From assembly GCA_024407875.1 (NCBI GenBank), contig JAKSVT010000004.1, forward strand, positions 6,982 through 70,981: a stretch of DNA of 64,000 nt, read 5' to 3'. Source of the DNA: Alphaproteobacteria bacterium (lineage in GTDB: Bacteria; Pseudomonadota; Alphaproteobacteria; CAAGCB01; CAG-977). Shown piece by piece: positions 6,239 through 58,393 of the stretch. The stretch's first letter is position 1; the number at the start of each line of letters is the position of its first letter. A model generated the notes under the pieces. It saw only the letters and a list, made by a program, of their open reading frames with translations, was not told the DNA's origin and did no database searches. Position numbers and translations under genes: made by a program.

Positions 6239-7813
6239 CTAACAATTTGTTCTAGTTTCTAAAAATTCAATCTTTGGATAGTCCTCTTTAGCTTTACCTA
6301 AATGCCATGCATTTCTTGCTAAGAATACCCAATTATTATCATGATCTGTTGCAATTGAACCTTTATTTGTATTTACAAAATTTTCTAATGTAGCATTATC
6401 AGGAGCTTTAACCCAACGTGCTGTATACAATGTTGTAGGTTCAAATATTACAGGTATCTCATATTCAGTTCTAATACGATCAGCCAAAACATCAAATTGT
6501 AACGCGCCAACAACACCTACAATCCAATCTGTACCAATTTGAGGTTTAAATACACTAGCTCCGCCCTCTTCAGCAATTTCTTGTAAAGCTTTGCCTAAAT
6601 GTTTTGCTTTTAAAGGATCTGTAGAACGAACTTTTTGTAGCAACTCTGGAGCAAAGCTTGGAATACCTGTAAATGTTAAGTTTTCACCTTCACTTAAAGC
6701 ATCACCAATACGTAAATTACCATGATTTGGTAAACCAATAATATCTCCAGGTAAAGCTTCTTCAGCTAATTCACGTTCTTGTGCTAAGAACATAATAGGA
6801 TTATGCATTGGCAAATATTTTCCAGAACGAACATGTAATAATTTCATACCACGTTGAAAATGTCCTGAGCATAAACGAACAAATGCTATTCTATCCCTAT
6901 GTTTTGGATCCATATTAGCTTGTATTTTAAATACAAATCCAGCAACTTTATTTTCAACAGGTTCAATAGTTCTGCTTACAGCTTTTTGAGGTCTTGGTGA
7001 TGGAGCAAACTTTACTAACCCATCAATTAATTGACGAACACCAAAATTATTCACAGCTGAACCAAAAAATACTGGTGTCATTGTACCTTGTAAATAAGCC
7101 TCTACATCAAATTCAGGGCATAAACCTCGAACCATTTCAACATCAGAACGTAATTTTTCACATTGATCTTGAGGAATTAATTCATCAATTTTCTTGTCTT
7201 CTAAGCCTTTGCAAACTTCACCCTCTTCAGTAGAACCTTTGCTAATTAATGCTAATCTATCATTTAATAAATCATAGCAGCCTTTAAAATCCCTTCCTGA
7301 ACCAATTGGCCAACTAACAGGAGAAACATCCAAAGCTAACTCTTCTTCAATTTGTTCTAATAAAGCAAAACAATCTCTAGAATCACGATCCATTTTATTA
7401 ATAAATGTGATAATAGGAACATCTCTTAATCTGCAAACTTCAAATAACTTTCGTGTTCTTTCTTCGATACCTTTTGCAGCATCAATAACCATAACAGCAG
7501 AATCAACAGCTGTTAACACACGATATGTATCTTCAGAGAAGTCTTCGTGCCCCGGTGTATCTAATAAATTGAATGTACATCCATTATATTCAAATGTCAT
7601 AACAGCAGAAGCAACAGAAATACCGCGTTCCTGTTCTACCTTCATCCAGTCTGAATGAGCTCTACGTTGTTCACCACGTGCTTTAACAGCACCTGCCATT
7701 TGAATAGCACCTCCGAACAACAATAATTTTTCTGTTAATGTTGTTTTACCAGCATCCGGGTGAGAAATAATCGCAAACGTCCGGCGTTTCTTTGTTTCTT
7801 CCGCCAAATTCAT
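6239..7813 (-). CDS. prfC: Peptide chain release factor 3
   Basis: GTPase motifs 'AIISHPDAGKTT', 'DTPGH' and 'NKMD'; 524 aa. Confidence 0.9.
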   Translation of the reverse strand: MNLAEETKKRRTFAIISHPDAGKTTLTEKLLLFGGAIQMAGAVKARGEQRRAHSDWMKVEQERGISVASAVMTFEYNGCTFNLLDTPGHEDFSEDTYRVLTAVDSAVMVIDAAKGIEERTRKLFEVCRLRDVPIITFINKMDRDSRDCFALLEQIEEELALDVSPVSWPIGSGRDFKGCYDLLNDRLALISKGSTEEGEVCKGLEDKKIDELIPQDQCEKLRSDVEMVRGLCPEFDVEAYLQGTMTPVFFGSAVNNFGVRQLIDGLVKFAPSPRPQKAVSRTIEPVENKVAGFVFKIQANMDPKHRDRIAFVRLCSGHFQRGMKLLHVRSGKYLPMHNPIMFLAQERELAEEALPGDIIGLPNHGNLRIGDALSEGENLTFTGIPSFAPELLQKVRSTDPLKAKHLGKALQEIAEEGGASVFKPQIGTDWIVGVVGALQFDVLADRIRTEYEIPVIFEPTTLYTARWVKAPDNATLENFVNTNKGSIATDHDNNWVFLARNAWHLGKAKEDYPKIEFLETRTNC

Positions 7814-42954: not shown

Positions 42955-43029
42955 TGGAGCGTAGCCAAGTGGTAAGGCAAAGGACTTTGACTCCTTCATG
43001 CGCTGGTTCGAATCCAGCCGCTCCAGCCA
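42955..43029 (+). tRNA. tRNA-Gln (anticodon UUG)
   Basis: Acceptor TGGAGCG/CGCTCCA with the U1–A72 pair typical of Gln, anticodon stem AAGGA/TCCTT with loop CTTTGAC, T-arm GCTGGTTCGAATCCAGC, and an encoded CCA. Confidence 0.8.
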
Positions 43030-43038
43030 GAGTCACAA

Positions 43039-43062
43039 AGTCGTCAGAAATGGCGACTTTTT
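43039..43062 (+). terminator. Rho-independent terminator after tRNA-Gln
   Basis: AGTCGTC-agaaatg-GCGACT stem-loop followed by TTTTT. Confidence 0.65.
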
Positions 43063-43342
43063 CTTTTATTTTCAAGCATTTAATCCGGTTCGAAGATGAA
43101 TATATTTTGAAGGCTAGTTTTGCTGTATCTTCGAACTTGCTTCTATATTTTTCAATAACTTAGCTAATTGCAGCCTTTTTTAAGCATAAAAATGAACCTC
43201 TGCTAATTTTTGCAAAGGTTGAACTTCTGACATAGCTATATGAAAGGTTGTTTAGCAATATTGTTAATAAAAACATTTGCATTATTTACTATGTCAAAAT
43301 ATGTCGTAACCTAAATGTATGTTTTATATAGGATGAATATTA

Positions 43343-44253
43343 TGGCATATGAAAAGACTTTTAATTTGTTAGATTTGGCGATTTGGATGCAATCAACTCG
43401 CGAAGGAGTTAGTTTGTCAGATATTATGAGTCGCTTTCAAGTATCAAGAAGAACTGCCGAACGTATGCGAGATATGATATTAAGTCGATTTCCTCAAGTT
43501 GTTGAAGAAATCGGTGAAAATAATTCAAAACGTTGGTATATCCCGCAAGGCACATTAAAAGACTTTATTCAATTTTCGGCTGATGATATTGCTTGTCTTA
43601 ATTTAGCCAAAGATGCCTTAATTAAAGAAAAACTATCTGATAAAGCCGACCAATTAAATGCTATTATTGAAAAAATTACAGCTTCCATTAAGCCAAATAC
43701 TTTATTAAAAATAGAACCTGATGCAGAAGTTTTGTTAGAAGCTCAAGGTTTTGCTCGCCGTGTCGGTCCAAAAATTAAAATTGATACTCAATATTTGGAA
43801 ACAATTAAAGAGGCTATTTTATCTAGCAAAGAACTAAAAATTAAGCATAATAACAAAACTCAAATTGTAGCTCCTTATGGTTTCTTATATGGTAATAAGC
43901 CTTATTTGGTAGCTTATTCCAATAATGCAAAAGAGTTCAGATATTATGCTTTACACAAGTTAAATTCCGTTCAGCTGACAAATAATCATTTTATTAATAC
44001 TTTTTCATTAAACGAATTTACCAAAGATTGTTTTGGCGTTTATAAAGAAAAACCTTTTGAAGTTGAATGGTTATTTAATGCTGATGTAGCTAAAGATGTT
44101 GAAAAATATGAATTTCATCCATCTCAACAAATGATAAAAAATAAAGACGGTACTTTAACCGTAAAGTTTTTCGCAGGTGGTCAAAAAGAAATGGATTGGC
44201 ATCTTTATACCTGGGGTGATAAAGTTAAAGTAATAAAACCAGAAAGGAAATAA
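43343..44253 (+). CDS. HTH–WYL–WCX transcriptional regulator (YafY/BrxR/CapW family)
   Basis: N-terminal winged HTH ('SLSDIMSRFQVSRRTAERMRDMI'), central WYL-like domain ('APYGFLYGNKPYLVAY...RYYALHKL'), and C-terminal WCX with the 'HPSQ' hallmark. Start placed at ATG 43343 with an AGGA RBS. Confidence 0.7.
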
Positions 44254-44255
44254 AA

Positions 44256-44819
44256 ATGACGCAAGAAGAAAATAAATTAAAGTACATTGAGAAAGATACT
44301 AAAATTGTAATTTTAGGAACATTTCCCTCTGAAGCATCAAGAGATACTTTCTTTTATCACAAATCAACCAATCAGTTTTGGACCATATTAAGTAAGCTTT
44401 ATAATTGTAATGATATTTGTCATTTACAAAAGAATGAAACATCTAAAGACAAAGAAGAACAATTAATTGAAAACAGAAAAGCTTTTCTTAAAAAGCACCA
44501 AATTGGTTTATGGGATGTTATTGATAAATGTGACATAGATAAAAGCAAAGATTCCTCTATCAAAAATCCGACTTATAATGATTTAGCTTCATTAAAAACA
44601 GAATGTCCAAAGTTAGAGCACATTTATTTTAGCAGTAAAAAAGCTTTTCAATTTTATCAAAAATATTTGCGAGACAATTTAAAAGATTATGCAAGTAAAA
44701 TTTGGTTAGAAAATGTTGTTATTAAAGAAGCATTACCATCTCCAAGTTCTGCTAATGCTCGTTTGACATTAGAACAAAAGCAAAAAAGATGGGGAGAGTT
44801 GTTAGGCTTATTTAATTAA
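44256..44819 (+). CDS. UDG-superfamily DNA glycosylase-like protein (Mug/TDG-like)
   Basis: Motif A 'ILGTFPSEAS...FFYHKSTNQFW' (compare Mug 'GINPG...FAHPANRFW'). Motif B 'LPSPSSANARL' (compare 'LPNPSGLSR'). Lies 2 nt downstream of the WYL regulator. Confidence 0.5.
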   Translation: MTQEENKLKYIEKDTKIVILGTFPSEASRDTFFYHKSTNQFWTILSKLYNCNDICHLQKNETSKDKEEQLIENRKAFLKKHQIGLWDVIDKCDIDKSKDSSIKNPTYNDLASLKTECPKLEHIYFSSKKAFQFYQKYLRDNLKDYASKIWLENVVIKEALPSPSSANARLTLEQKQKRWGELLGLFN

Positions 44820-44913
44820 AAGCAATCTTCTTCTAAATCGCTAAATTTTCCTATATCTCGGTCAAATAAGCATTTTATCCATCCGCAATTGCCATTATTG
44901 TTTTTAGCGATTA

Positions 44914-45795
44914 TTATTTCACATTTATTTTCTTGTTCTGTTCTAGGCAATCTTCTTGCCATTCTTTATAACGTTTTTCAAAATGCTCTTTTGTTTCTCT
45001 TTTATACTGCTTTGGTTCTTTATCATACATATAATAACTTTCTCTATATAAAAATAAGAGTTTATCAGCATATGGAACGATATTACGATACCCGTCTTTA
45101 ATATCACTATTAATTGGTATTTTACATTGTCTTTGCTCTAGGTTTCGGTTTAGTTGAGAAAGTATAAGTATTGGAACATCTAATTTTTCTGCAATACTTT
45201 TAATATCTTGCATAAATTTTTTATAAGCTTGATTTGACTTATCTTCTGAATAAAGTGATAAAAGTTGCAAACAATCTATAACGACAAGCCCGAATTTATT
45301 TCTATTTGCAAATGCATATATCTTATCTTTTATATCACTAATAGAGCTTATTTGATTGCATAGATATATTGGCAATTGATTTATTTCATTACCGGTAAGT
45401 GCTATTTTTTCAAATTGTTTATAGTTTTCTATGTTGTGTCTTAATTCATATAAAGGAATTCCGGAAGCTAAACTAACAAACCGTTGCATTATATTCTTAT
45501 TATTGCATTCAAAATCAAAATATAAAACGTGTTTTATTTCTGAATTGTTTTGTTCTGCTTCTTCTTTGAATTTTTGTGCCACCTGATAAACACAGTTTAT
45601 TGCAAATGCCGTTTTTCCCATTGCAGGTCGTCCCGCTATAAGAACAACATCACCACCTCGAATATATCCTAGTCTTTCATCTAATCTATCTATACCTGTT
45701 GACAATCCGAGAGGCTCACTGTTCATTTGATAACGATATTCAACTTCTTTAATATATTCAAGAAATGCATCAGATATATGTAATGTTTTATCCAT
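44914..45795 (-). CDS. DnaB-family replicative helicase, C-terminal (RecA-like) domain only
   Basis: 'GLSTGIDRLDERLGYIRGGDVVLIAGRPAMGKTAF' (Walker A), 'VIDCLQLL' and 'ILSQLNRNLEQR...NSDIKDGYRNIVPYADKLLFLYRE'. The N-terminal DnaB domain is absent. Confidence 0.65.
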   Translation of the reverse strand: MDKTLHISDAFLEYIKEVEYRYQMNSEPLGLSTGIDRLDERLGYIRGGDVVLIAGRPAMGKTAFAINCVYQVAQKFKEEAEQNNSEIKHVLYFDFECNNKNIMQRFVSLASGIPLYELRHNIENYKQFEKIALTGNEINQLPIYLCNQISSISDIKDKIYAFANRNKFGLVVIDCLQLLSLYSEDKSNQAYKKFMQDIKSIAEKLDVPILILSQLNRNLEQRQCKIPINSDIKDGYRNIVPYADKLLFLYRESYYMYDKEPKQYKRETKEHFEKRYKEWQEDCLEQNKKINVK

Positions 45796-46032
45796 TTTAA
45801 TACTCCATACTAGTTTTTGTTGTATGGATATTAAACTAAAGATACGCCATATTTTGACAGATACAAATATACCAATATTGCAGATAGGTGAAATTAGTTA
45901 AAGAACAGGTTTTATTAGCAAACTAACATATTGTCATTAATAGTGGTAGGTTATAATTTACTTTTCTTAATGAAACATATATCAAAATCTAAATAGCTTA
46001 TATGGGGCGAAAGTACAATTTTCTATTTTACT

Positions 46033-46878
46033 TTATTTATCGCTAGTATTCTGATTAAGTATCGATTCAAAGAATCTATCAAATTCAAAAATTTCTTCTG
46101 CTTTCACAATTACACCAATATTGATAGGGAAACTGGTTACTGGCCTTGGAATACACGGGATGTAATCAAATTTTAAAATTCCTTCAGCATTGTATTCAAG
46201 CCCCCCATACAAAACTCCAACAAATTTAATATTATTACCTAAATATGCACCACTTTTATCAGTATACAATCCTTCGTTTAAAACAAACACAGGAGAACCA
46301 CTGCATCCGTGAAAACTTGCAATATCAATTAAAAATTCTTTTTTCCCATTGTAATTATTTTTAATATGCGTAGCAGTAATACCTTTACGAATAATTGGTT
46401 TGTGATTATATACATCTGAAAATCCTATCGGATATCCAACCATAACAATATTTTCAATAGCTGTCATGTTTTCTATTTCTTCTTGCGAAGGAATTAAACT
46501 CATATCCAATGGAATGTAAAAGGTGTGAATACCTTGTTTTATCACATTATCAAGTGCATCTGTTATTGGTAAGCAACATAAATCTACCGATAAACTTGGA
46601 TGTTCTATCCAAGGACACCCATCATATGTAAATGGAGCTGTTTTTGTATTACAGATATTTCCATCTGCATCGCATGTACATAACTCAAATTGTGTCATTA
46701 CACTATTCTTTACTACGTGTTTATTTGTAATAACGGCGGCTATATATTTACTATTATCTTTACTATTAAAATGGACAATAAAACCCGTACCTAAACTAAC
46801 TTTATGATTTTTATCAGTGCATTTAAGCAGCACAGTAGAATAAGTAATTTTTTCTGATAAACTCATTTGTTCAATCAT
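46033..46878 (-). CDS. Trypsin-like (S1/chymotrypsin-fold) serine protease, no signal peptide
   Basis: 'GTGFIV...AVITNKHVV' (His), 'HGCSGSPVFV' (Ser nucleophile); 281 aa. Confidence 0.5.
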   Translation of the reverse strand: MIEQMSLSEKITYSTVLLKCTDKNHKVSLGTGFIVHFNSKDNSKYIAAVITNKHVVKNSVMTQFELCTCDADGNICNTKTAPFTYDGCPWIEHPSLSVDLCCLPITDALDNVIKQGIHTFYIPLDMSLIPSQEEIENMTAIENIVMVGYPIGFSDVYNHKPIIRKGITATHIKNNYNGKKEFLIDIASFHGCSGSPVFVLNEGLYTDKSGAYLGNNIKFVGVLYGGLEYNAEGILKFDYIPCIPRPVTSFPINIGVIVKAEEIFEFDRFFESILNQNTSDK

Positions 46879-47030
46879 TTTTTATCTTTCAGAAAGGCTA
46901 ATTACAACATTATATATTTAGGGTTTTATTTCTCAAAACGCAAGTATTTTATTGATTTGAAAATCTATCTCGGGTTCCTAACACCCCGAAGTTAAAAACA
47001 ATTAAAATTTTAGCTCGAGAATTGCGAATT

Positions 47031-47080
47031 CACTCCAGCCAGACTTAACAGGTCGTCTTTAAAGACGGCCTTTTGCTTTA
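47031..47080 (+). repeat. Second copy of the tRNA-Gln 3'-end repeat plus hairpin (internal att-like junction)
   Basis: 'CACTCCAGCCAGA', then AGGTCGTCTTT-aa-AGACGGCCT hairpin and TTTTG. Confidence 0.55.
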
Positions 47081-47306
47081 TTTACAAGGCTTTCGGCTGG
47101 TCCGTGTGGTTAGCATCAAAAAACAGCCTTCCCGACAATTTACACGGACCAGTTATAGCAAGTTTCTTTATTTTTCAATCATTTATGAAATTTCATCTCT
47201 CTAAATATGCAATAACGCGATTTCGGGAGAAGATGGACTTCATTTACTTGAGGGAAAGATGTTGTTAATTTATTTAATTGATATTATTTTTAAAATATCC
47301 GTCAAT

Positions 47307-48605
47307 TTAGTTTTTTCCATAATTATCAAGTTTGATTTTGTTACGTATATTTTCATTATCAATATTTTCTACATATTTAATTACATTATCTGGTGCACCA
47401 TAATCACTTGCCATTTTACCTTTTTCAGTGTAAGCATTATATTCAAATTTTGATAATAATCTATCAAATCCCGTTACATCATCAATTTCGCATTTTAAAG
47501 TCTGAGATATCCTATATTTATAGATTAGATTGAATATCCCTAAATATTTTACAAGGTGATATTTAAGTTTATTATAGATAAAATCGGCTGTCGTTCTTAT
47601 AGCTCTATCATAATCCAGATTTTTCTTCTCTATATAATATTTAACTTCGCCATAAAATCCTGCTTTAAGATAACAACTTACCATATAAACAAGAACAGAG
47701 AACTCTTTACCTTCGTAAGTGGAAGTCTTATTATTGATTAATGAGTATATCGGCGAATCTTTTGCAATATCTTTTATTGTGTTCAGAAATATTTGGAAGC
47801 CATCAAAATTTATAGAATCGTACATAGTAGAATTTACACAATTTTCAATTTTAGCTAATTCCTCAGATGTTAATCCCATAATTTTATGAAATAGCGAAAC
47901 CTTATTTTGCTTTGAGATTGTCTTAAATTGAGTAAGTATGATACCAGGAAGTAAAGACGACAATCTATTTATTTCTTTTTTTCTTTCTAAATCTTGTTCC
48001 GATAAGTAATTATCTCTTGTATAATCTAGATCTATATCAGTTTTTGCAGACGTTTTATCATAATTTTTATGCTCTAAAATGGCGTCGTTTGCATATAACA
48101 CATCCATAAAATTATTTTGCAGAACAATAACTCTTCCTGAATAATGATGAAGAAATCTACCAGCACGACCCGCAATATTTTTTGCATCAAATGGTTTTAA
48201 TGGTTTAGGAGACTTTTTACATAGCGTTACAAGAATATTTTTTGCAGAGGTGTTTACTCCTTCCGTTATGGTTGTAGTTGTTGTTAAAACTTGTAATTCT
48301 CCTTGATTAAAAAATTTAATAATTTCTTTTTGAATATATTTTGGAACCAAGCCATTGTGTATACCCACACCTTTTTTCAGGGCTTTATATAATAACCAAT
48401 CTTCTGAAAATGTACTCTTTATATGTTCTAAAAATAATGCGTATTGACTATCATAATCGTGAAGCTCTGGTAAAATATCTAATAAATATTTGGCATAAGA
48501 CCTTGTTCCTTTTTTATCAGCACAATAGACAATACATTTTTCCCCATTATTAAGTAAGGTTTTTATAATTGATATAAATTTATCTGTTTTATTATTCTTA
48601 CACAT
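47307..48605 (-). pseudogene. SF2 helicase C-terminal fragment (RecA2 domain plus C-terminal extension); N-terminal ATPase domain missing
   Basis: Motifs IV–VI 'LTTTTTITEGVNTSAKNILV' and 'AGRAGR', but no Walker A/DEAD anywhere upstream. Only 75 bp separate it from the divergent neighbour. Confidence 0.5.
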
Positions 48606-48680
48606 TTTTTAACTGTAAGATTACCACAACATTGGGAAACTACTAATTTAAATCATGCAATAGGAAGATTAAGACTTATT

Positions 48681-49055
48681 ATGAAGGTATTTGAAAGATG
48701 TCTTATTAAAAATCATTGGAACAAACATCATTTACCTTTTATTGCTACTTCTGAAACAGGTGATGGTATATATTGGCATTTTCATATATTGTTTAATCAA
48801 GATAAATATACAGATGATATGTTAAATAATGCTATAAAGAAGACTATTAAATCTATAAGAGGTATGTCTGATTACTGCTTAAAATTAAAACATATTGAAG
48901 AAGATAATATAAAAACATTTGTAAAAGCTGTTAATGATACTGATTTTTATTGTTTAAAGGAGATAAAAGTTAATAGATATGGTAAATTTGACGGTGAAAG
49001 GATAATATTTTCTGATGATTTATTCAACTTGCCATATCAAAGCATATCCCATTGA
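48681..49055 (+). CDS. Hypothetical protein (124 aa) with an HUH-like 'WHFHILF' motif
   Basis: ORF only; 'HLPFIAT' followed by 'HFH' resembles HUH-endonuclease motifs, but this is speculative. Confidence 0.3.
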   Translation: MKVFERCLIKNHWNKHHLPFIATSETGDGIYWHFHILFNQDKYTDDMLNNAIKKTIKSIRGMSDYCLKLKHIEEDNIKTFVKAVNDTDFYCLKEIKVNRYGKFDGERIIFSDDLFNLPYQSISH

Positions 49056-49057
49056 GT

Positions 49058-49150
49058 CATAAACAACCCATAAACAGCCGGATTCATTTTTTATAACTAA
49101 ACCTATACCAAAAAGTAGAATTGAATCATATGGTCAAAAATAGACTTTAT
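49058..49150 (+). repeat. Direct repeat copy 1 (~93 bp), upstream of fic
   Basis: About 75% identical to 50368–50460; shared blocks 'ATAAACAACC', 'ATTCATTTTTTATAA' and 'GGTCAAAAA-T-GACTTT'. Confidence 0.6.
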
Positions 49151-49262
49151 CTCAACTATATAAAAATTACCTTATAATCAAAAAATCGTTAGTTAATCAT
49201 ATTTTATTATTGATTTATTCATAATTTAATCATAAAATAATCATAAATTATAGGAGTAAATC

Positions 49263-50348
49263 ATGACTTTTTTACCAAAATATACCATTACCAAAGATAT
49301 TTTAGCTGATTTAACTAAGATTGAAGCTGTTAAAAATTCGTTTGATGATAAACCTTTGTCACCGGTTTTGTTATCTTCGCTGCATAAAACTGCCAAAATT
49401 GCACAAAGTCACTACTCTACGCAAATTGAAGGTAATCATTTATCATTAAAACAAGTAGAAACGACGCTTTATTCTGCCAACAAATCGATTAAAGAATATC
49501 AAGGTCATGACGAAAAAGAAGTCAAAGCTTATTACAATGCTATCAATTATATGGAAAAAGTTCTTGAAAATGGTGGAGAATTTGATGAAAAGCTGGTGCA
49601 AAAAATCCATTCACTAATTGAAGGCAGTAAAAAAATTATTCCATATCGTAATGAACAAAATGCAATATACGACACATCTGACGGCTCACTTGTCTATCTG
49701 CCACCGGAAACTAAAGATGTTCCTGTTATGATGAAAGATTTGGTTGCTTGGGTAAATGATAACATTGATAAATTGCCAACACCTATTGTAGCAGGTTTAT
49801 TTCATTATCAGTTTGTGACTATCCATCCTTATTTTGACGGTAATGGTAGAACAGCACGCTTGATGACAAGTTATATTATGCGTAAATTCGGTTATGGCTT
49901 AAAAGGTATTTATTCTTTGGAAGAGTATTATGCTAAAAATCTCAAAGATTATTATCAAGCACTGGCAACACATCCGCATCACAACTATTATTTTGGCCGG
50001 AACGTTGCTGATTTAACTCCTTGGCTTGAATATTTTATTAAAGGTGTGGCGACAGCATTTGAAAATATCAATATTAAAGCACAAGAACAGCAGAACACAG
50101 GTATTAAAACGGATATATCACCAATGTTGCGTAAACTGGATATTAAACAACGCAAAATTTTAGAATTATTTGTGGAGTTTGATCAAATAACCTCAAATCA
50201 AGCAGGTGAATATTTGAATTTATCATCACAATCAGCCAGACTTTTATTAAACAGATGGGTAGAAGAAGGATTTTTAATAATAGCAAATAAAGCGCGTAAA
50301 AACAGAACTTATGGTTTAGCACAAGAATATGAACAGCTGATATCATAA
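49263..50348 (+). CDS. Fic-family protein (AMPylase-type) with C-terminal winged HTH
   Basis: Canonical Fic motif 'HPYFDGNGRTARL'; 361 aa. Confidence 0.8.
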   Translation: MTFLPKYTITKDILADLTKIEAVKNSFDDKPLSPVLLSSLHKTAKIAQSHYSTQIEGNHLSLKQVETTLYSANKSIKEYQGHDEKEVKAYYNAINYMEKVLENGGEFDEKLVQKIHSLIEGSKKIIPYRNEQNAIYDTSDGSLVYLPPETKDVPVMMKDLVAWVNDNIDKLPTPIVAGLFHYQFVTIHPYFDGNGRTARLMTSYIMRKFGYGLKGIYSLEEYYAKNLKDYYQALATHPHHNYYFGRNVADLTPWLEYFIKGVATAFENINIKAQEQQNTGIKTDISPMLRKLDIKQRKILELFVEFDQITSNQAGEYLNLSSQSARLLLNRWVEEGFLIIANKARKNRTYGLAQEYEQLIS

Positions 50349-50367
50349 TAAAGCGCTCTCCATTGCT

Positions 50368-50460
50368 CTATAAACAACCTAGAAACAAGCTATTCATTTT
50401 TTATAAGTAAACTTATATCAAACAGGTAAAAGGTTGCTATAGGTCAAAAAATGGACTTTC
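50368..50460 (+). repeat. Direct repeat copy 2 (~93 bp), downstream of fic
   Basis: See copy 1. Confidence 0.6.
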
Positions 50461-50507
50461 TTACCAAATGGAAAAGAAGTTTATATTAAAGATACGGTAT
50501 CAAAAAA

Positions 50508-50580
50508 GGGCCCTATACAATCAAGATTCATTTCTACTGGTTAGTTTATAGTCAAAAATAAATCTATGCGTATAGGGCCC
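50508..50580. repeat. Inverted repeat, 11-bp perfect arms GGGCCCTATAC/GTATAGGGCCC with a 51-nt spacer
   Basis: Read directly. Lies immediately upstream of the recombinase remnant and is GC-rich in an AT-rich context. Confidence 0.6.
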
Positions 50581-50728
50581 CAAAACAAGCTTTAGTGTTT
50601 GTGTTTAGTTAATTAGTTGGCACCTTCCAATTTGATGTTGCAATCTGATAAAAACTCAGCAAATCTTCTTAAAGGAAAACCTGATTTTAAGCAAAGATTC
50701 TCGCGGTATTGATATTCTTTTCTGGAAT

Positions 50729-51757
50729 ATGTGCGTTTTAATGGCTAACAGTTATATTTTAAGCCTGTCTGACAATGTTCGCCGTAGTCTTGAATATAAC
50801 TGGAGCCAAGGCAAATGGCAGAGTTTGGCACCTATCGGATATCTCAATCAAAAAGATAAACATGGCAAATCCATTATAGTGATTGATGAAGAACGAGCAC
50901 CTATTATCAAGCGTTTGTTTGAAGAATATGCTACCGGTCTGCATACCGCACAAAGTTTATTGATTTTGGCTTGTAAATTAGGACTTACCGCTAAAGAAAC
51001 TTATTCAGAAGAGACACCTCAAAGAAAAAGATTTATCAGCCGTACCAAGATTTATGAAATTCTGCGTAATCCTTTTTATGCCGGAATTATGTGTGTCAAA
51101 GGAAAATTGATGCCACATATCCACGGCAAAATTATTGATAAAAAACTTTATGACCAAGTGCAGCAAATTATGGATGCTAAAGGTATGGAAAGAGAAATAC
51201 ATAAACATCAGCAAAAATACAAGGTTAAAAAGTTTGCATTTCGTGGAATTGTTTTGTGTGGCAGATGTCATCACTTAATGTCTCCGGATTGCAAAACCAA
51301 GACAAACGGCAAGCAATATACTTATTTAAGATGTTACAACAAATGCGGTCAAATGCCGATTAATGAAACCATATTGCTTAAACAGCTTGAAACAGAAGTA
51401 TTTGCTAAATTTTTCATACCACCGCAAGATTTTAATAAGATAAAACAATCTCTTATCAATCATTATAAACGACCATCACATGCAAAAACAGAGCTTTTGA
51501 ATAAACTGGTTAACCTGATTTGCAATATGCCAACCATTATGCAACAAGCAGATGCCGGCACCAAAAATGAAATATTGGTTATTCTGCTTCAAAATTTCAC
51601 CTTAAATGAGCAAACACTCTCTTATTCTCTTCGCTCGCCGTTTGATAAGCTGATTGAGACAGATTATCACAATTGGAAAGATATTATTATACATAATTTC
51701 AAAGACTTATCGTCGATTGGATATAATCTTAAAGCCATCAACTTAAAGGAGGATTAA
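50729..51757 (+). pseudogene. Large serine recombinase remnant lacking the N-terminal catalytic (resolvase) domain
   Basis: Paralog of 52169..53353, starting at the equivalent 'M.VLMA.NY..SLS.NV.RSL..NW..GKWQ' point. Has recombinase domain and Zn ribbon ('CGRCHHLM...LRCYNKCG'), but no 'ARVSS' catalytic domain upstream. Confidence 0.55.
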
Positions 51758-51760
51758 ACT

Positions 51761-52165
51761 ATGCGTAAAAAATACCAGAAGAAACTCATTGAAAAGTGTA
51801 CCGAAGCCATAACATTTGCGCGTGTTTCTAGCGAAAAACAGGAACGTGGCGCTTCTATTGATGCTCAAAAAGAATTGATCTACGATTATTGTATGGAGAA
51901 AAATTTCAAAATCATTAAAGAGTTTGAAATTACCGAGAGTACAACTCGCGGCGATCGTGTAAAATATAATGAAATGCTTGATTTTATTCGTTCTCGCAAC
52001 AAAAAGACCGCTATTGTTGTAAACTGCGTTGATAGACTTCAAAGAAGTGATGAAGATAATCCGGCACTTAATAAACTGCGCCGAGAAGGCAAAATTGAAA
52101 TACACTTTATGAAAGAGCATATTATCTTAGATGAAACTTCTCCGGTACAAGATATTTTTGCATAG
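51761..52165 (+). CDS. Serine recombinase N-terminal catalytic domain (ends at an in-frame TAG)
   Basis: 'ITFARVSSEKQ' (catalytic Ser) and 'VVNCVDRLQRS'. The ORF ends 'DIFA*' at TAG 52163–52165, in frame with the next ORF. Confidence 0.6.
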   Translation: MRKKYQKKLIEKCTEAITFARVSSEKQERGASIDAQKELIYDYCMEKNFKIIKEFEITESTTRGDRVKYNEMLDFIRSRNKKTAIVVNCVDRLQRSDEDNPALNKLRREGKIEIHFMKEHIILDETSPVQDIFA

Positions 52166-52168
52166 AAA

Positions 52169-53353
52169 ATGAATGTGCTAATGGCTGGCAACTACACGGA
52201 TTCATTATCATATAACGTAAAAAGAAGTTTGGTTAAAAACTGGAATTCTGGTAAATGGCAAGGCATGGCACCTCTCGGATATTTAAATCGCCATACAGAT
52301 GATGACAACAACGAAGCCATTATTATTGTTGATCCTGTTCGCGGACCGATTATCAAGCATTTATTTGAAGAATTTGCAACCGGTAAACATACTTTGAAAA
52401 CATTGTGGTATTTATCCAAAGAATTAGGTTTATATACCAAAAATAAAAAGAAAAAAGGCTGCTTTGTGAGCAGAAACACGCTTTATGATGTTCTGACCAA
52501 TCCGTTTTATCATGGTTTGATGTGTATCAAAGGCGAGTTTTACAATCATATTTATGAGCCGCTGATAAGCAAAGAATTATTTGACCGTGTACAAGCCATT
52601 TTGACCGGAAACGGCAATCATAATCGCAATAACACCACAGAATATGCCAAAACACCTTACATTTTCCGCGGTTTGATACATTGTAAAGAATGCGGTTGTT
52701 TGATTACGCCGGAAAAGAAAATCAAAAAGAACGGTAGCACGTATATTTATTTGCGTTGCGGTCATCCTTGTAAAGAATGTCATCAAGGAATAGTTAACGA
52801 AAATGTGATTATTGAGCAGCTGAAAAAGGAAGTTATGGATAAAATATCATTACCGCCGAAATTGCAGGAAATCGTCAAAGAAAAACTAACTCAAGAATTA
52901 AATGATACATCGGCTTTTAATAAGACTATGAAAACCAATATCACGAATAAACTGAACGAATTGAAAGTTAAAGAAGACAATTTACTTGATTTCTACCTGG
53001 AAGGAAAGCTGCCACAAGCAACTTATGAAGCCAAACAAGAACAGATTGCCAATCAGCGAGCTGAACTTGAGCAGACAGCCGAAAAATACAAAAATATTGA
53101 TGCCGATATGAAGAAAAGAGTTGTGCAGGTTATGGCTTTGGCAAATAATATCTCTAAGTTGTTTGATATGGCAACTCCAACCAGAAGAAACGAGTTATTA
53201 CAATTACTTATTTCAAACTGTCAACTTAATGATTCAAAATTAGAATATACCGTAAACGCACCATTTAACTGGTTAATGGATAGCAATAATTATACCGAAT
53301 GGACCACCGTCGTCATTGAGCATTTAGATGACTTTGAATGCGTGAAGGTGTAA
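52169..53353 (+). CDS. Large serine recombinase C-terminal portion (recombinase domain, Zn ribbon, coiled coil)
   Basis: Same frame as 51761..52165, separated by TAG+AAA. 'CKECGCLITP...LRCGHPCKEC' ribbon and a C-terminal coiled coil. Confidence 0.6.
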   Translation: MNVLMAGNYTDSLSYNVKRSLVKNWNSGKWQGMAPLGYLNRHTDDDNNEAIIIVDPVRGPIIKHLFEEFATGKHTLKTLWYLSKELGLYTKNKKKKGCFVSRNTLYDVLTNPFYHGLMCIKGEFYNHIYEPLISKELFDRVQAILTGNGNHNRNNTTEYAKTPYIFRGLIHCKECGCLITPEKKIKKNGSTYIYLRCGHPCKECHQGIVNENVIIEQLKKEVMDKISLPPKLQEIVKEKLTQELNDTSAFNKTMKTNITNKLNELKVKEDNLLDFYLEGKLPQATYEAKQEQIANQRAELEQTAEKYKNIDADMKKRVVQVMALANNISKLFDMATPTRRNELLQLLISNCQLNDSKLEYTVNAPFNWLMDSNNYTEWTTVVIEHLDDFECVKV

Positions 53354-53434
53354 GGATTATAATGGATGATATTTTAATAATATTGCAGATTTTATTTAAT
53401 TTATCATATACAATCACCGTAAATATCCAGGAGA

Positions 53435-55858
53435 TTGTACATGAAGATTATAAAAGAAATTACAAAATTGAAAAACTTTGCATCTTTTGAAGATTACGAA
53501 TGGGACTGCAAAGCATTAAATGATTTTGAAAAATATAATCTATTTTATGGGTTAAACGGTAGTGGAAAAACGACTTTATCTCGTTTATTCTATTTTCTTA
53601 ATGAAGGTATGATTTGTCATGAGGGGCACTATGATAGTGAATTTGGTATATTGCTTAATGACAACTCTTTAATTACACAATATGATAATAATGCATTAAA
53701 AGGAAAAATATGTGTTTTTAATGACTTATTTATTGAAAATTATTTAGATTTTAAGACCGTTAAATCAAAAAAAATTGTATATTTTTCTGCTGGAAAAGAT
53801 GCAAAAATGTTATTAGAATACAAAAAAGACTTAGAGAGAAGAAAACAAATTATAGCTAATAAACTCCAAAAAGTAAAAGATGAGTATTCACAACTTGATA
53901 TTAGTAATAAAAAAATTTATGGAGATTTTCAAGACAGCGTAGTAAATACTTTAGATATTAATAAAAATAAATTCAAAATTACTAACGCTATAAGCACATT
54001 AGATGTAATTCTTAAAAATCAATCTACTATATTCCTTTCAAATCAAGAAATTGATAACCAAAGAAATTTATATGCACAAACCCAACTCCCTATATTGGAT
54101 TATTCGTATTTGAAATCATATCCGTTAACTGTAGATGATATAGAAAAACTATCAGATTTATTAAAAGAAAAAATTGAAAGAAAAAATCTCTCCGATTTAC
54201 GGGATGAAATAGCTGATTGGCTAAATAATGGTATTACCTACCAAAATGAGCAATCTAACGGGAAATGTATTTTTTGCAATCAACCATTACATCCAACTAT
54301 CTGGCAAGAAAGAATCAAACAAATATTTCATATGACTGAAAAAGATGCCATATTTCAAATTAAAGAACAAACAATTAATCGGTATATTTCTGAAATACAA
54401 AATATACTCATGTCATCATTCAACATAAAAGAAAATATTAATCAATTTTACCCAAAATATAAAGTTGCATTCTCTAGTATTATAGGATCTTTACAATCTG
54501 AGTTCGACAACCTTAAAAATTTATTAGAAAAATTGATAAGTTATTTAACTGAAAAATTGAAAGATACTAAACGTAACATTGATATATCTGAGATTATGAT
54601 GGAAAATAATCTCAGTTTATATAATAATCTTGTTGTGTCTATTAATAATATAAATAGAACATTAGAAAAATTTGAAGATTTATTTACTAACAATAACCAA
54701 CATAGTCGAGTAATATCAAGTGAACAGACTGAGGCTTTTAATAATATATGTAGTTACTGTGCAACCTCTTTTGTCAAAGAATTATTAACTAACCATGATG
54801 CATTAAAAAGAAATGAAGCAGCCTCCAATAAATATATTAGTTTATTTAATAAAATAGAAACGAAATTAAAGCAGAAAGCACAAGAACTAGCAAATTCAGA
54901 AGCTCCTATTAACGAAATAAATGATATAATTCAACAAATAATGGGAAAAAATAAATTTTACTTTGATAAAGATGGTGTCGATGGGCAATATAGAATAAAA
55001 CGGATTGAACATAATAAAATAAATGAAGCCATAAATCTTAGCGAAGGTGAAAGAAATATTATATCTTTTGCTTTTTTTATCACATATATTAAGGAAAAGA
55101 TTGAAGATAGCATCATTGTAATTGATGATCCTATCTCTTCACTAGATAGTTCTTATTTTTTCAACATATTGAATCTTCTGTTAAGTTCTAGATTAATAAG
55201 AAATAATAAGTTAAAACAAATATTTATTTTAACCCATAATTTTTATTTTTTCAAAAAGCTAAGAAAAAATATTAAAGGACAGAAATGTCCACAATTAGAT
55301 GCAAATGGTAATATTATACGAGATTCAAATGGGAAAGAGTTAATTAAACTTTGTAAATATTCAAAAAAACAATCTCTCGAAAATAAGCAAATATACCAAA
55401 TTGTAAAAAGTAATTACGCATCATCAATTCAGCCACCATCTGACTACTTACGCAAATACAACAGCGAATATCTCACACTAATTGAACAATTCATAAAATA
55501 TAAAAATAATTTAGATATTACATCATATCAATATGATGAAGGTATTTCTGTTCTAAATACAATGAGAAGAATTTTAGAAACCTTTCTCGAAAACAAATAC
55601 CCTACATCAGGAGGAGAAGGCTTTAATGCAAAATTCCAAGAAACAATCACTAAATTACACAGAGATGACTTATTATATTTAGCAGACATTCTTAATATCG
55701 GTAGTCATGGTGATAACCCTTTCCCCTCTCTTAACTATACTAAATATGAAGATTTCTCAAAGTTGACTGATGATTATCTTGATTATATTAAGAGCCTAGA
55801 TATTGATTTCTATAGCAGTGTATTTGAGCCATTATTATCTATACATATGAAACCATAG
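53435..55858 (+). CDS. PrrC/RloC-like ABC ATPase (AAA_13) with CxxC zinc-hook; candidate anticodon nuclease / abortive-infection protein
   Basis: Walker A 'GLNGSGKTT' and a long coiled coil carrying 'CIFCNQ'. ABC signature 'LSEGER' and Walker B/D-loop 'IIVIDDPISSLDS'. The ~240-aa C-terminal domain ('RRILE...GSHG') is unassigned. Confidence 0.5.
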   Translation: MYMKIIKEITKLKNFASFEDYEWDCKALNDFEKYNLFYGLNGSGKTTLSRLFYFLNEGMICHEGHYDSEFGILLNDNSLITQYDNNALKGKICVFNDLFIENYLDFKTVKSKKIVYFSAGKDAKMLLEYKKDLERRKQIIANKLQKVKDEYSQLDISNKKIYGDFQDSVVNTLDINKNKFKITNAISTLDVILKNQSTIFLSNQEIDNQRNLYAQTQLPILDYSYLKSYPLTVDDIEKLSDLLKEKIERKNLSDLRDEIADWLNNGITYQNEQSNGKCIFCNQPLHPTIWQERIKQIFHMTEKDAIFQIKEQTINRYISEIQNILMSSFNIKENINQFYPKYKVAFSSIIGSLQSEFDNLKNLLEKLISYLTEKLKDTKRNIDISEIMMENNLSLYNNLVVSINNINRTLEKFEDLFTNNNQHSRVISSEQTEAFNNICSYCATSFVKELLTNHDALKRNEAASNKYISLFNKIETKLKQKAQELANSEAPINEINDIIQQIMGKNKFYFDKDGVDGQYRIKRIEHNKINEAINLSEGERNIISFAFFITYIKEKIEDSIIVIDDPISSLDSSYFFNILNLLLSSRLIRNNKLKQIFILTHNFYFFKKLRKNIKGQKCPQLDANGNIIRDSNGKELIKLCKYSKKQSLENKQIYQIVKSNYASSIQPPSDYLRKYNSEYLTLIEQFIKYKNNLDITSYQYDEGISVLNTMRRILETFLENKYPTSGGEGFNAKFQETITKLHRDDLLYLADILNIGSHGDNPFPSLNYTKYEDFSKLTDDYLDYIKSLDIDFYSSVFEPLLSIHMKP

Positions 55859-55896
55859 AAATTTTATTCTTCTATCATAGTCCGTGTATTGCAAGC

Positions 55897-55942
55897 TCAC
55901 TCCAGCCAAATTTTAAAGTCGTCAGAAATGGCAACTTTTTTT
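55897..55942 (+). repeat. Third copy of the tRNA-Gln 3'-end repeat plus (degenerate) hairpin; right boundary of island
   Basis: 'CACTCCAGCCAAA', then AAGTCGTCAGAAATGGCAACT (one G-to-A change relative to the tRNA-proximal hairpin) and T7. Confidence 0.55.
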
Positions 55943-55975
55943 ATAATCAATATTGATATTTTGAAAGTTTAAAAT

Positions 55976-56422
55976 ATGTTAAATCAAGATTTAAAAATGG
56001 AAAAATTTACAGAAAACGATAGACAAGAATTAATGAATATGATGATAGAATTCTTTTCTTCAGAAGCTGTATCTACAAATGGAAATCCTGAAATTTTTAA
56101 ATCTACTATAGATAATTGTATATATAACCCTACATATGTAGAAGGATATATTTTAAAATTCAAAAATGAAAATGCAGGTTATATTATAATTGCCAAAAGT
56201 TTTACTACAGAATTTGGGAAAAATTGCCTTTGGCTTGAAGATTTATATTTAAAAAATCAATTTAGAGGGAAAGGCATCATTCCTTATTGCTTAGATCTTA
56301 TAAAAACAAAATATCCTGATTATATCTTTAAATTAGAAGTTGAAGCAGAAAATGAACATGCAATACACGTATATAAGAAATTCGGATTTAAAGAATTTCC
56401 TTATTTTGTAATGCATACTTAA
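55976..56422 (+). CDS. GNAT-family N-acetyltransferase
   Basis: 'RGKGI' and 'HVYKKFGFKE' motifs; 148 aa. Confidence 0.6.
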   Translation: MLNQDLKMEKFTENDRQELMNMMIEFFSSEAVSTNGNPEIFKSTIDNCIYNPTYVEGYILKFKNENAGYIIIAKSFTTEFGKNCLWLEDLYLKNQFRGKGIIPYCLDLIKTKYPDYIFKLEVEAENEHAIHVYKKFGFKEFPYFVMHT

Positions 56423-56443
56423 TAGAACTAAATATTAATATAT

Positions 56444-56638
56444 TTATATCTGATGAGAATATTCTGATTCGTTTGTTTCCACAAATTCATCATCATGATC
56501 AAGCATAATTTCAGCTAATACGTCATTATTAATCTTGTCTTCGCCATTTATTTTTTCATAACATACACGAGGACCTAGTTCTGTGTATTCTACTTTATAC
56601 ACCTTACTGTTAATTCTATAATACTTATAATCGCTCAT
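56444..56638 (-). CDS. Small acidic protein (64 aa), translationally coupled downstream of the RelA/SpoT-domain gene; putative antitoxin
   Basis: TAATG overlap at 56636–56640; D/E-rich sequence. Confidence 0.35.
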   Translation of the reverse strand: MSDYKYYRINSKVYKVEYTELGPRVCYEKINGEDKINNDVLAEIMLDHDDEFVETNESEYSHQI

Positions 56639-57348
56639 TATCTTGCCCTTTTACTCAAAAGCAACGCTTTCTTTGTTGCATTATTTAATAGCTTTGGCTC
56701 TTCTTTTGTTTCTTGTTTTGTTTCTTCAGGAACATTCTTTAATTTTCTACCTTTTGTTGTAGCATTATATGTTCTTGCAGCTTCAGCGTATAAATATTTT
56801 TGTGCTTGAGAATGAATATTTAATGCAATCTGTTCACTAGGCGTCAAAGCTCTATCTTTTGCTCCAGCCATAATGGAACGAATTTTTTCATAATGTAAAT
56901 GAGCTTTTTCATTTGCTTCTAAATAAGCACGTAAATGAATTTGAATTTCAACAGGAGCTCCACTAGATACAGCAACTACATATTTAACATCTCTGTATCC
57001 ATCTTTATTTGGTTCATCCATACGATCTACTTTTCTAACTGTATCAGCTCTTTTATCTAATATACCTGTAACAGCATCAATTTGTTCCAAAGTATCACAT
57101 ACAATACGACCTCTAGCTAAATCCTGTAATCTTGAAGGATCTCCATCATATTTATGATTTAATTTTTCAAAAGCTCTTGCACGTCCCTTTAAAGGAGCTG
57201 CTGTATATGTAACCCCAGGAACCTCTTTAATTACATTTTCACAAAAAGCATCCAATTCAGGCTTTGATTTTTCAGCATAAGCATAAGCTTCATCTAAAGT
57301 TTTTGGTTTGTATTCAGGTCTCATTTTTTGTCTCCGATACATATTCAA
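56638..57348 (-). CDS. Stand-alone RelA/SpoT-domain (small alarmone synthetase-like) protein; candidate toxSAS
   Basis: 'GRARAFEK..', 'GRIVCDT', 'DGYRDVKYVV' and 'EIQIHL' (compare EIQIRT); 236 aa with a basic C-terminal tail. Confidence 0.55.
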   Translation of the reverse strand: MNMYRRQKMRPEYKPKTLDEAYAYAEKSKPELDAFCENVIKEVPGVTYTAAPLKGRARAFEKLNHKYDGDPSRLQDLARGRIVCDTLEQIDAVTGILDKRADTVRKVDRMDEPNKDGYRDVKYVVAVSSGAPVEIQIHLRAYLEANEKAHLHYEKIRSIMAGAKDRALTPSEQIALNIHSQAQKYLYAEAARTYNATTKGRKLKNVPEETKQETKEEPKLLNNATKKALLLSKRAR

Positions 57349-58393
57349 CTTTTACATCTTTCTTTTTCATTTGTTCTGCTTTTTTAAATTGCCATTGAGT
57401 TTTTGCGTATGTTCTCATATCAACAATTTTATCCGTTTCATCTACGATTTCTTTTCCTAGAACAGATTCTAAAATATCTTCCATGGTTACAATACCTAAC
57501 CAAGTCCCAACTTCATCATAAACTACACCGATGTGAGTATGATTCTTCATCATATCAGCAAACACTGTTGATGCATTAGCTGTAGATGCAATTTCCAAAA
57601 CAGAACGGATTACTGAATCTACTACTTCATTATCATCTTTATCAACGAAATCTGATTTATGAACATATCCAATAAATGTTTCTTCATCTTCATTTTTTTG
57701 TACAGGATAACGAGAAAAAGACTTCTCTTTCACAAATTCAGAAAATTCCGATGCTTTCATTCCAGAAACAACTGTTTCGCACACATTTCTCGGAGTTAAA
57801 ACATCTTTTATTTTTATACTATCTAAATTCATTGTATTATTGATTACATTATATTCATCAGAATTAATACAATGAGCAACATATCCCATCTTTGTTAAAG
57901 CCAAAATTTCCTCTCTTAAATCTGCTTGATCTGAGTTTGTTTTAGGCTTTAATGCATTTGTTAATTTTTCAAAAATAAACAAAAATGGTTTTAAAACAAA
58001 AATCATTAATGGCAAAATGAAACAAAGGAATCCTATTAATTTTTTCCAATATGTTGCCCCTATTGTTTTTGGAATAATTTCACTGCATAACAAAATTAAA
58101 ACTGTCATTACTCCAGAAGCTATTGCTACATAATTATTTCCATATAAATTTGCAACCTGAGCACCTATACAAGAAGCTCCTGCTGTATTTGCAACAGTAT
58201 TTAACATCAAAATTGCAGCTAATGGTGTATCTACATGCGCTTTTAAATTTGACATTTTTCTATATACATTTGGGCGCTTTTGTTCCAATCCAGCAATGTA
58301 TGATGGTGTTGTAGATAATAATGCTGCTTCCATCAAGGAGCATAAAAACGATAATCCAACTGTTAAGGCTACCGAAATAATTAAAAGAGACAT
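57314..58393 (-). CDS. HlyC/CorC (CNNM) family transporter, DUF21 plus CBS domains
   Basis: N-terminal DUF21 TM domain plus tandem CBS domains; 359 aa. Confidence 0.7.
   Translation of the reverse strand: MSLLIISVALTVGLSFLCSLMEAALLSTTPSYIAGLEQKRPNVYRKMSNLKAHVDTPLAAILMLNTVANTAGASCIGAQVANLYGNNYVAIASGVMTVLILLCSEIIPKTIGATYWKKLIGFLCFILPLMIFVLKPFLFIFEKLTNALKPKTNSDQADLREEILALTKMGYVAHCINSDEYNVINNTMNLDSIKIKDVLTPRNVCETVVSGMKASEFSEFVKEKSFSRYPVQKNEDEETFIGYVHKSDFVDKDDNEVVDSVIRSVLEIASTANASTVFADMMKNHTHIGVVYDEVGTWLGIVTMEDILESVLGKEIVDETDKIVDMRTYAKTQWQFKKAEQMKKKDVKVEYVSETKNET

Follow-up and report, generated by a model that had tools for sequence, protein, structure and literature searches.

A probably inactivated large serine recombinase module in a defence island at a tRNA-Gln gene of a gut alphaproteobacterium

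In SCCmec, two adjacent large serine recombinases (LSRs), CcrA and CcrB, act together, and grounded or cryptic prophages and islands are elements that have been fixed by mutational loss of their recombinase while useful cargo was retained. Tycheposons are tRNA-targeted cargo islands that occur in tandem arrays, and 27 of 937 use a large serine recombinase (bioRxiv 10.1101/2020.12.28.424599). In serine recombinases the alpha-E helix provides the dimer and tetramer interface as well as the link to the DNA-binding domains (PMC3783163). Here we report on two LSR genes, LSR1 and LSR2, of a genomic island (island B) at a tRNA-Gln gene within a 64-kb stretch of contig JAKSVT010000004.1 (the window), from a metagenome-assembled genome (MAG) of an alphaproteobacterium. 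LSR1 has lost its 5' part, LSR2 is interrupted by one in-frame TAG, and the pair is very probably a dead integrase module in a grounded tRNA-Gln defence island. Related loci and proteins are referred to by L and P numbers, respectively.

Two damaged recombinase genes

Three open reading frames (ORFs), at 50729-51757 (342 amino acids, aa), 51761-52165 (134 aa) and 52169-53353 (394 aa), have one reading frame in common. The coordinates and the frame confirm the observation of an earlier note that the last two are parted only by TAG 52163-52165 and AAA 52166-52168; together they form a single LSR gene, LSR2, with the Shine-Dalgarno sequence AAGGAGG (51746-51752) ahead of its start at 51761. Using Pfam, Resolvase (PF00239; E=1.6e-14 for LSR2) was found in the 134-aa ORF, and Recombinase (PF07508) and Zn_ribbon_recom (PF13408) were found in both the 394-aa and the 342-aa ORFs. 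This agrees with the catalytic domain that had been assigned to the first ORF of LSR2 and the recombinase domain and zinc ribbon assigned to the second, the ribbon being just below threshold: PF07508 exceeds its cut-off in LSR1 and LSR2, whereas PF13408 passes in LSR1 at 26.8 bits and stays slightly under the cut-off of 25.3 bits in LSR2 (23.3-24.5 bits), with the zinc-ribbon cysteines conserved. When the TAG is read as Trp, the Resolvase match crosses the stop (residues 16-163, profile positions 1-142 of 145) and the fused LSR2 can be aligned along its whole length with proteins of 530 aa, to which it is 95% identical. The FARVSSEKQ motif and every invariant residue of the catalytic domain are kept, and the coiled-coil helices (residues 366-442 of an AlphaFold2 model) align with the coiled coil of the A118 integrase.

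The stop stands at a position that is an invariant Trp (W135) in 15 of 15 intact homologues aligned (516-550 aa, 42-93% identical to the best one), a comparison that the earlier note had called for. The LSR1 remnant has TGG (50723-50725) at the equivalent codon, and because the homologues and the remnant agree on TGG-Trp, the stop is attributed to one G>A transition at 52164. GenBank lists the 134-aa product as MCQ2913995.1, from an alphaproteobacterial MAG, and all members of its 90%-identity cluster that extend beyond codon 135 read AWKMNV, so the stop is private to this strain. In an AlphaFold2 model of a 95%-identical intact orthologue (mean pLDDT 82.7), residues 129-162 form one long helix, which by the model corresponds to alpha-E, with the TAG six residues into it. 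Both this helix and the Resolvase match span the stop, as expected from the earlier proposal that the junction DIFA*KMNVLMAGNY belongs to a continuous alpha-E helix.

If the TAG were an artefact of sequencing or assembly, or belonged to a minority allele, LSR2 would be intact in the dominant genotype and the island still mobile. The source genome is a MAG and the remainder of LSR2 is flawless; moreover, L002 has a 98%-identical LSR2 without LSR1, which implies that LSR1 loss need not be fatal. However, an independent assembly of run SRR17543911, from Logan, includes a contig of 18.6 kb (L082) that is 100% identical to window positions 49207-58165 (8,959 nucleotides, nt), TAG included. The same base in this assembly rules out an assembler-specific error, and short-read assemblies seldom have wrong substitutions in their consensus. 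Independent breaks of this gene occur in L003, by GAG>TAG at codon 478 (L003 11690-11692) together with alteration of the normal stop codon, and in L027, by a frameshift in a poly-A/Lys run (~7590-7640), so such decay is common in the family. A miscalled base, which had been put forward as a refutation of a broken gene, is made unlikely by the Logan contig, and error or minority allele together are considered quite unlikely.

Translation might also stop at the TAG and re-initiate at ATG 52169, 4 nt past the stop, with the 134-aa and 394-aa fragments reassembling into a split enzyme or acting separately, for example by att-site binding; the 342-aa LSR1 remnant could act likewise. Both C-terminal ORFs are intact and their ratio of non-synonymous to synonymous substitution rates (dN/dS) is low, but a recent lesion explains clean ORFs equally well. 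ATG 52169 is merely the conserved Met137 codon, and no Shine-Dalgarno sequence precedes it, unlike the start at 51761. When a large protein collection was searched with the fused LSR2, 887 relatives were retrieved; the best have 530 aa and match it throughout at 94-95% identity. Among the best 120 of the 887, nearly all are single chains of ~515-590 aa and none is split at codon 135; five shorter matches among them, examined individually, are contig-end fragments or chimeras. The idea that homologues might naturally exist as two polypeptides finds no example in this set. Furthermore, the break falls inside alpha-E, at the dimer/tetramer interface and the DNA-binding link (PMC3783163). We regard a split enzyme as very unlikely. 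Only remotely likely is a variant in which the 342-aa and 394-aa fragments have been retained as att-site-binding proteins, the latter through re-initiation or with a rare read-through trickle of full-length protein. If true, such fragments might hold the island where it is or keep related islands from integrating at tRNA-Gln, and the second in-frame TAG, in L003, would hint at recurrent throttling of the integrase.

That second, independent TAG is also what speaks for programmed amber read-through or suppression, by which the full-length integrase would be made at a low, regulated level, as the earlier note had suggested. A recoded stop would be expected to be conserved, whereas this one is private to one strain, with TGG-Trp in all other homologues that reach the site. 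TAG is a normal terminator here, ending 6 of 47 long ORFs in the window, including housekeeping genes, and the three tRNAs that ARAGORN found in the window (Glu-CTC, Arg-CCG and Gln-TTG) are ordinary; an amber suppressor, for which the earlier note had proposed a search, is not among them. Over all fetched loci, the in-frame stops of LSR homologues are TAG in four cases and TAA in three, opposite seven different residues (W, R, S, E, Q, K and N), which shows no consistent recoding. The two TAGs among close orthologues each arose by a GC>AT change, the direction that mutation bias favours at 31% GC. A regulated integrase is on these grounds scarcely credible. Reassignment of TAG was rejected, given the long ORFs that it terminates and the in-frame stops of homologues, which include TAA as well as TAG and face residues that have nothing in common.

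The lesion in LSR2 is probably recent, and purifying selection is likely to have acted until very recently. Of the 86 residues that are invariant across the 15 homologues, 85 are kept, W135 being the sole exception. Three intact orthologues, with 92-93% nt identity to LSR2, give a dN/dS of 0.06-0.08 for it; the intact genes compared with each other give 0.04-0.05. Fourteen codons carry private non-synonymous changes, most of them within a coiled-coil patch at 411-430; because the intact allele P0002 has the same sequence there, this patch reflects recombination, not decay, and ~7 conservative private amino-acid changes are left once it is set aside. The recent date rests on these retained residues, the low dN/dS and the few private changes. 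Long-term relaxed selection on LSR2 was rejected, as it is seen neither in dN/dS nor in the private-substitution counts.

The intact module in relatives consists of a 478-aa LSR1 with full catalytic domain, then 3 nt, then a 530-aa LSR2. This operon is intact in L001, a metagenomic contig, and L004, a MAG contig, both ~94% identical at nt level to window positions 50665-53360. With the same gene order in L003, also a MAG contig (~94% nt), L027 (70% nt) and L008 (50-62% aa), the arrangement was seen in five relatives, in two of which, L003 and L027, LSR2 is the disrupted gene. What the earlier note had framed as two decaying copies is therefore a conserved two-gene operon. Compared with the intact L001 gene, the LSR1 remnant is 94% identical in nt and 96% in aa, without gaps, over codons 116-478. 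Its homology stops sharply at 50665, 64 nt upstream of ATG 50729, and because it ends so abruptly, a deletion is taken to have removed the start codon, the serine nucleophile and the upstream region. Pfam detects no catalytic domain in the 342-aa ORF, as had been noted, but it is not wholly gone, since a 21-codon tail, including TGG 50723-50725, survives in the remnant. Nor do the two genes truly begin at the same alignment position, as had been thought: both ORFs open at a conserved Met that is the first ATG after a stop, and the LSR1 homology reaches back to 50665.

LSR1 and LSR2 are 39% identical, and ~57 coiled-coil residues are naturally absent from LSR1; reading this gap as decay was rejected, since intact 478-aa orthologues have the same length. 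A recent tandem duplication with both copies decaying was likewise rejected, given the 39% identity and the conservation of the pair as an operon elsewhere, and judged by their divergence the two are old paralogues. LSR2 occurs without LSR1 in L002 and most other relatives, and the existence of LSR2-only elements makes co-dependence of the two doubtful. The private substitutions of the LSR1 remnant (11 non-synonymous and 14 synonymous, against 10 and 21 in L004) suggest relaxed selection weakly at best. A GC-rich hairpin at 50508-50580, with a perfect 11-bp stem GGGCCCTATAC ... GTATAGGGCCC and a fold z-score of -3.8, has no other copy in the window or the fetched loci; being unique to the locus, it was rejected as a repeated element that might explain the LSR1 deletion. 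Chimeric proteins were observed in the family, P0004 having an LSR1-type segment (about residues 100-175) within an LSR2-type protein, and P0043 and P0049 having an LSR2 N-terminus fused to a C-terminus that comes from a more distantly related recombinase of the family; these chimeras indicate that paralogous recombinase genes recombine with each other.

By descent and architecture both genes are LSRs, and here both read as pseudogenes; neither now encodes a single complete polypeptide, LSR2 being cut by the TAG and LSR1 lacking codons 1-115. We infer that recombinase activity has been lost, and because both LSR genes are inactivated, island B should be unable to excise or move by its own means. 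The region 50665-53353 would be the integration/excision module of an ~8.9-kb defence island inserted at the 3' end of tRNA-Gln(TTG), beside a 4-kb integrase-less relative, in an uncultured gut alphaproteobacterium. A deletion removed the LSR1 upstream region and codons 1-115, including the serine nucleophile, and a G>A transition changed codon 135 of LSR2, otherwise an invariant Trp, to TAG, cutting the protein six residues into alpha-E. Self-driven excision or movement would thus have been lost, and the island would be fixed while carrying its defence genes. The proposal of a dead integrase in a fixed island, already made in the earlier note, is favoured by the damage to both LSR genes, by other deletion scars in the island and by the finding of no other recombinase in island B or anywhere in the window.

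Several points weigh against this conclusion. The genome is metagenome-assembled, both assemblies may share reads, and a within-population TGG/TAG polymorphism or a systematic error may lie behind the shared base. The two remnants have stayed long and clean as ORFs, and their dN/dS is low, which would also be expected were the fragments still in use, and ATG 52169 could allow some C-terminal fragment by re-initiation. The genome beyond the window could encode a trans-acting related recombinase or a suppressor tRNA.

Tandem islands at the 3' end of tRNA-Gln

The last 9 nt of tRNA-Gln, CTCCAGCCA (43021-43029), recur at 47033-47041 and 55900-55908, and every copy is followed by a terminator-like hairpin; the hairpin at 43037-43069 is duplicated at 55915-55947 with 88% identity. 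Related 22-nt arms, TAGCTCGAGAATTGCGAATTCA and TAGTCCGTGTATTGCAAGCTCA, precede the last two core copies, and island A closes with the right-end motif TAGCTCGAGAATTGCGAATTCACTCCAGCCA (47011-47041). As in tRNA-targeted islands, one boundary is an intact tRNA gene and the opposite one a direct repeat of the tRNA 3' end, with a recombinase gene near one end and the same ends in different genomic contexts. The 31-nt right end of island B, TAGTCCGTGTATTGCAAGCTCACTCCAGCCA, is 100% identical in L001-L004 and L025, whose flanks differ, which places an identical element end beside different flanks in six loci. Variants of it were found in more than 20 further loci, often in several copies per locus. The motif always lies downstream of the LSR gene in the same orientation, with the LSR ending 42 nt to ~3.6 kb before it, and beyond it each locus has a different sequence. 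In L016, L017 and L025, too, related elements are preceded by a tRNA-Gln gene.

The 9-mers AGTCCGTGT in the element arm and GGTTCGAAT in the T-arm/acceptor of the tRNA are alike, the tRNA copy being 5 nt nearer the shared core, and an attP/attB offset of this kind has been described for serine integrases (PMC3783163). Crossover likely falls within CTC-CA-GCCA. All feature coordinates are given in Table 1.

Table 1. Positions of the features discussed (window coordinates unless a locus is named).
Feature	Position	Strand	Description
LSR1 remnant	50665..51757	+	codons 116-478 of a 478-aa partner recombinase; matched to intact L001:455-1891
LSR2	51761..53353	+	530 codons, one nonsense codon; 95% identity over 100% length to intact 530-aa P0001
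In-frame TAG, codon 135 of LSR2	52163..52165	+	ancestral TGG-Trp; changed base 52164 (G>A)
tRNA-Gln(TTG)	42955..43029	+	integration target; ARAGORN, Rfam
Island A	43030..47041	+	4.0 kb, without integrase; WYL regulator, UDG-like protein, DnaB-C helicase, trypsin-like PDC-S45
Island B	47042..55908	+	8.9 kb; owns the LSR module; core copies 47033-47041 and 55900-55908 at its bounds
Island B right end (attR)	55878..55908	+	element arm TAGTCCGTGTATTGCAAGCTCA + core CTCCAGCCA
Flank of island B	55909..55947	+	second tRNA-Gln terminator hairpin; presumed original chromosome downstream of tRNA-Gln
Left-end inverted repeats	window 47100-47152, 43087-43138; L017 2772-2815; L025 4699-4745		
Opposite-strand tRNA loci	L042 11504-11579; L071 11459-11533; also L049-L057, L076		Asn or Gln where ARAGORN was run
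HamB (Hachiman helicase), 5'-truncated	47307..48605	-	PADLOC E=4e-147; profile positions 323-756/767
184-aa element gene, 5'-truncated	48600..49055	+	ORF 48681-49055 = residues 63-180
SoFic-like Fic-domain defence gene	49263..50348	+	Pfam, PADLOC
AAA_13 / PDC-S06 (PrrC-like) candidate defence ATPase	53435..55858	+	Pfam, PADLOC
Variable slot	window 53354-55877; L001 3488-4135; L002 11594-13696; L003 11852-13577; L004 11852-12909; L017 11597-14379; L025 11621-14002		

An inverted repeat of ~50 nt was observed at the left end of each element, about 57-110 nt past the tRNA-derived core. Its stems differ between elements yet stay complementary (TGGTCCGTGT/ACACGGACCA; GGTTCGAAGAT/ATCTTCGAAC; GAGTCCGAA/TTCGGACT), and in island B and L017 the left-end stem equals the right-end motif GTCCGTGT. 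The recombinase could bind at this repeat, or the repeat could act as a structured RNA. In distant relatives (30-40% identity) a tRNA gene was seen on the opposite strand, overlapping or abutting the recombinase 3' end; the targeting of tRNA genes thus seems to extend to the wider LSR clade, in a different geometry.

Cargo and other damage in the islands

The window has 30.7% G+C and is densely packed with ordinary bacterial ORFs. An Rfam scan returned only the three tRNAs, and promoter and terminator scans were uninformative in such AT-rich DNA, with counts close to those of shuffled sequence. Island B carries further scars beside the recombinase genes. HamB lacks its first ~320 codons, only Helicase_C being found by Pfam, and PADLOC found no HamA partner beside it. 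The truncated HamB abuts the truncated 184-aa gene, and the divergent 5' ends of the two were probably lost in one deletion. Direct repeats of ~130 nt (49033-49160 and 50344-50470, 70-88% identical) flank the SoFic gene, which therefore resembles a cassette that was inserted, or was duplicated along with the region downstream of it; the LSR1 deletion point follows closely after the second repeat.

Between the LSR2 stop and the right-end motif lies a slot whose gene content changes with every locus: here it is the PDC-S06/AAA_13 ATPase, elsewhere unrelated ORFs of 105-905 aa. This slot beside the integrase looks like a hypervariable cargo hotspot, probably with a defence role. In island A, PADLOC identified both the PDC-S45 trypsin-like protein and the WYL regulator.

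Significance and relation to known systems

The locus would record a mobile defence island in the course of being fixed in the host chromosome, in an order that can still be read, with the deletions first and a very recent point mutation last. The state of its module is that of an ordinary stranded mobile element, not of a regulated enzyme. A single locus of this kind has little weight, and the useful by-product is the surrounding recombinase family. On sequence grounds these are uncharacterised large serine recombinases of gut Alphaproteobacteria, with the 3' end of tRNA-Gln as their target; they build tandem island arrays and have the hypervariable defence-gene slot beside the integrase. Intact members such as those of L001 and L004, for which attP/attB arms can be inferred, could serve as new tRNA-site-specific integrases.

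A single-sequence search of the PDB gave no match; a family profile was needed, and it matched the catalytic domain of the TP901-1 integrase (3BVP, E=3e-8) and, from the A118 integrase, the C-terminal domains together with their coiled coil (4KIS/6DNW, E=1e-7). Identity to anything in phage and plasmid collections is at most 35%, and in IMG/VR at most 38% for the best segment. Neither exact motif nor protein profile found a close relative in viral contigs, and for that reason nothing points to a phage or a packaged satellite. The best phage-collection matches (34-35% identity) are MT837677.1 (6.4 kb) and MT836653.1 (9.3 kb), unannotated entries named 'Bacteriophage sp.' from human faeces, which may be excised or packaged islands and not phages.

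The LSR2 architecture of catalytic domain, alpha-E, recombinase domain and zinc ribbon with inserted coiled coil is like that of the A118/LI (Listeria) and TP901-1 integrases. It differs from A118 and TP901-1 in its very distant sequence, in its target at a tRNA 3' end, in its setting in a ~9-kb defence island and in the broken gene. The similar 9-mers in the element and tRNA arms, offset by 5 nt, resemble those of phage-type serine integrases (PMC3783163). With CcrA/CcrB the operon of intact relatives shares two diverged LSR genes placed head to tail; unlike that pair, many relatives have LSR2 alone and LSR1 is without most of the coiled coil. The likeness seen is one of arrangement.

Like tycheposons, these are small elements at tRNA genes, flanked by partial tRNA copies, in tandem and with defence or adaptive cargo. 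Host phylum and habitat differ, however, and the hallmark tyrosine recombinase is absent from the island; instead of the tyrosine recombinase and replication module of tycheposons, the only replication-type gene is the DnaB-C helicase of island A. The resemblance to tycheposons is functional only. With grounded and cryptic elements island B shares an inactivated recombinase and retained cargo; it shows no essential difference from them and belongs to that category.

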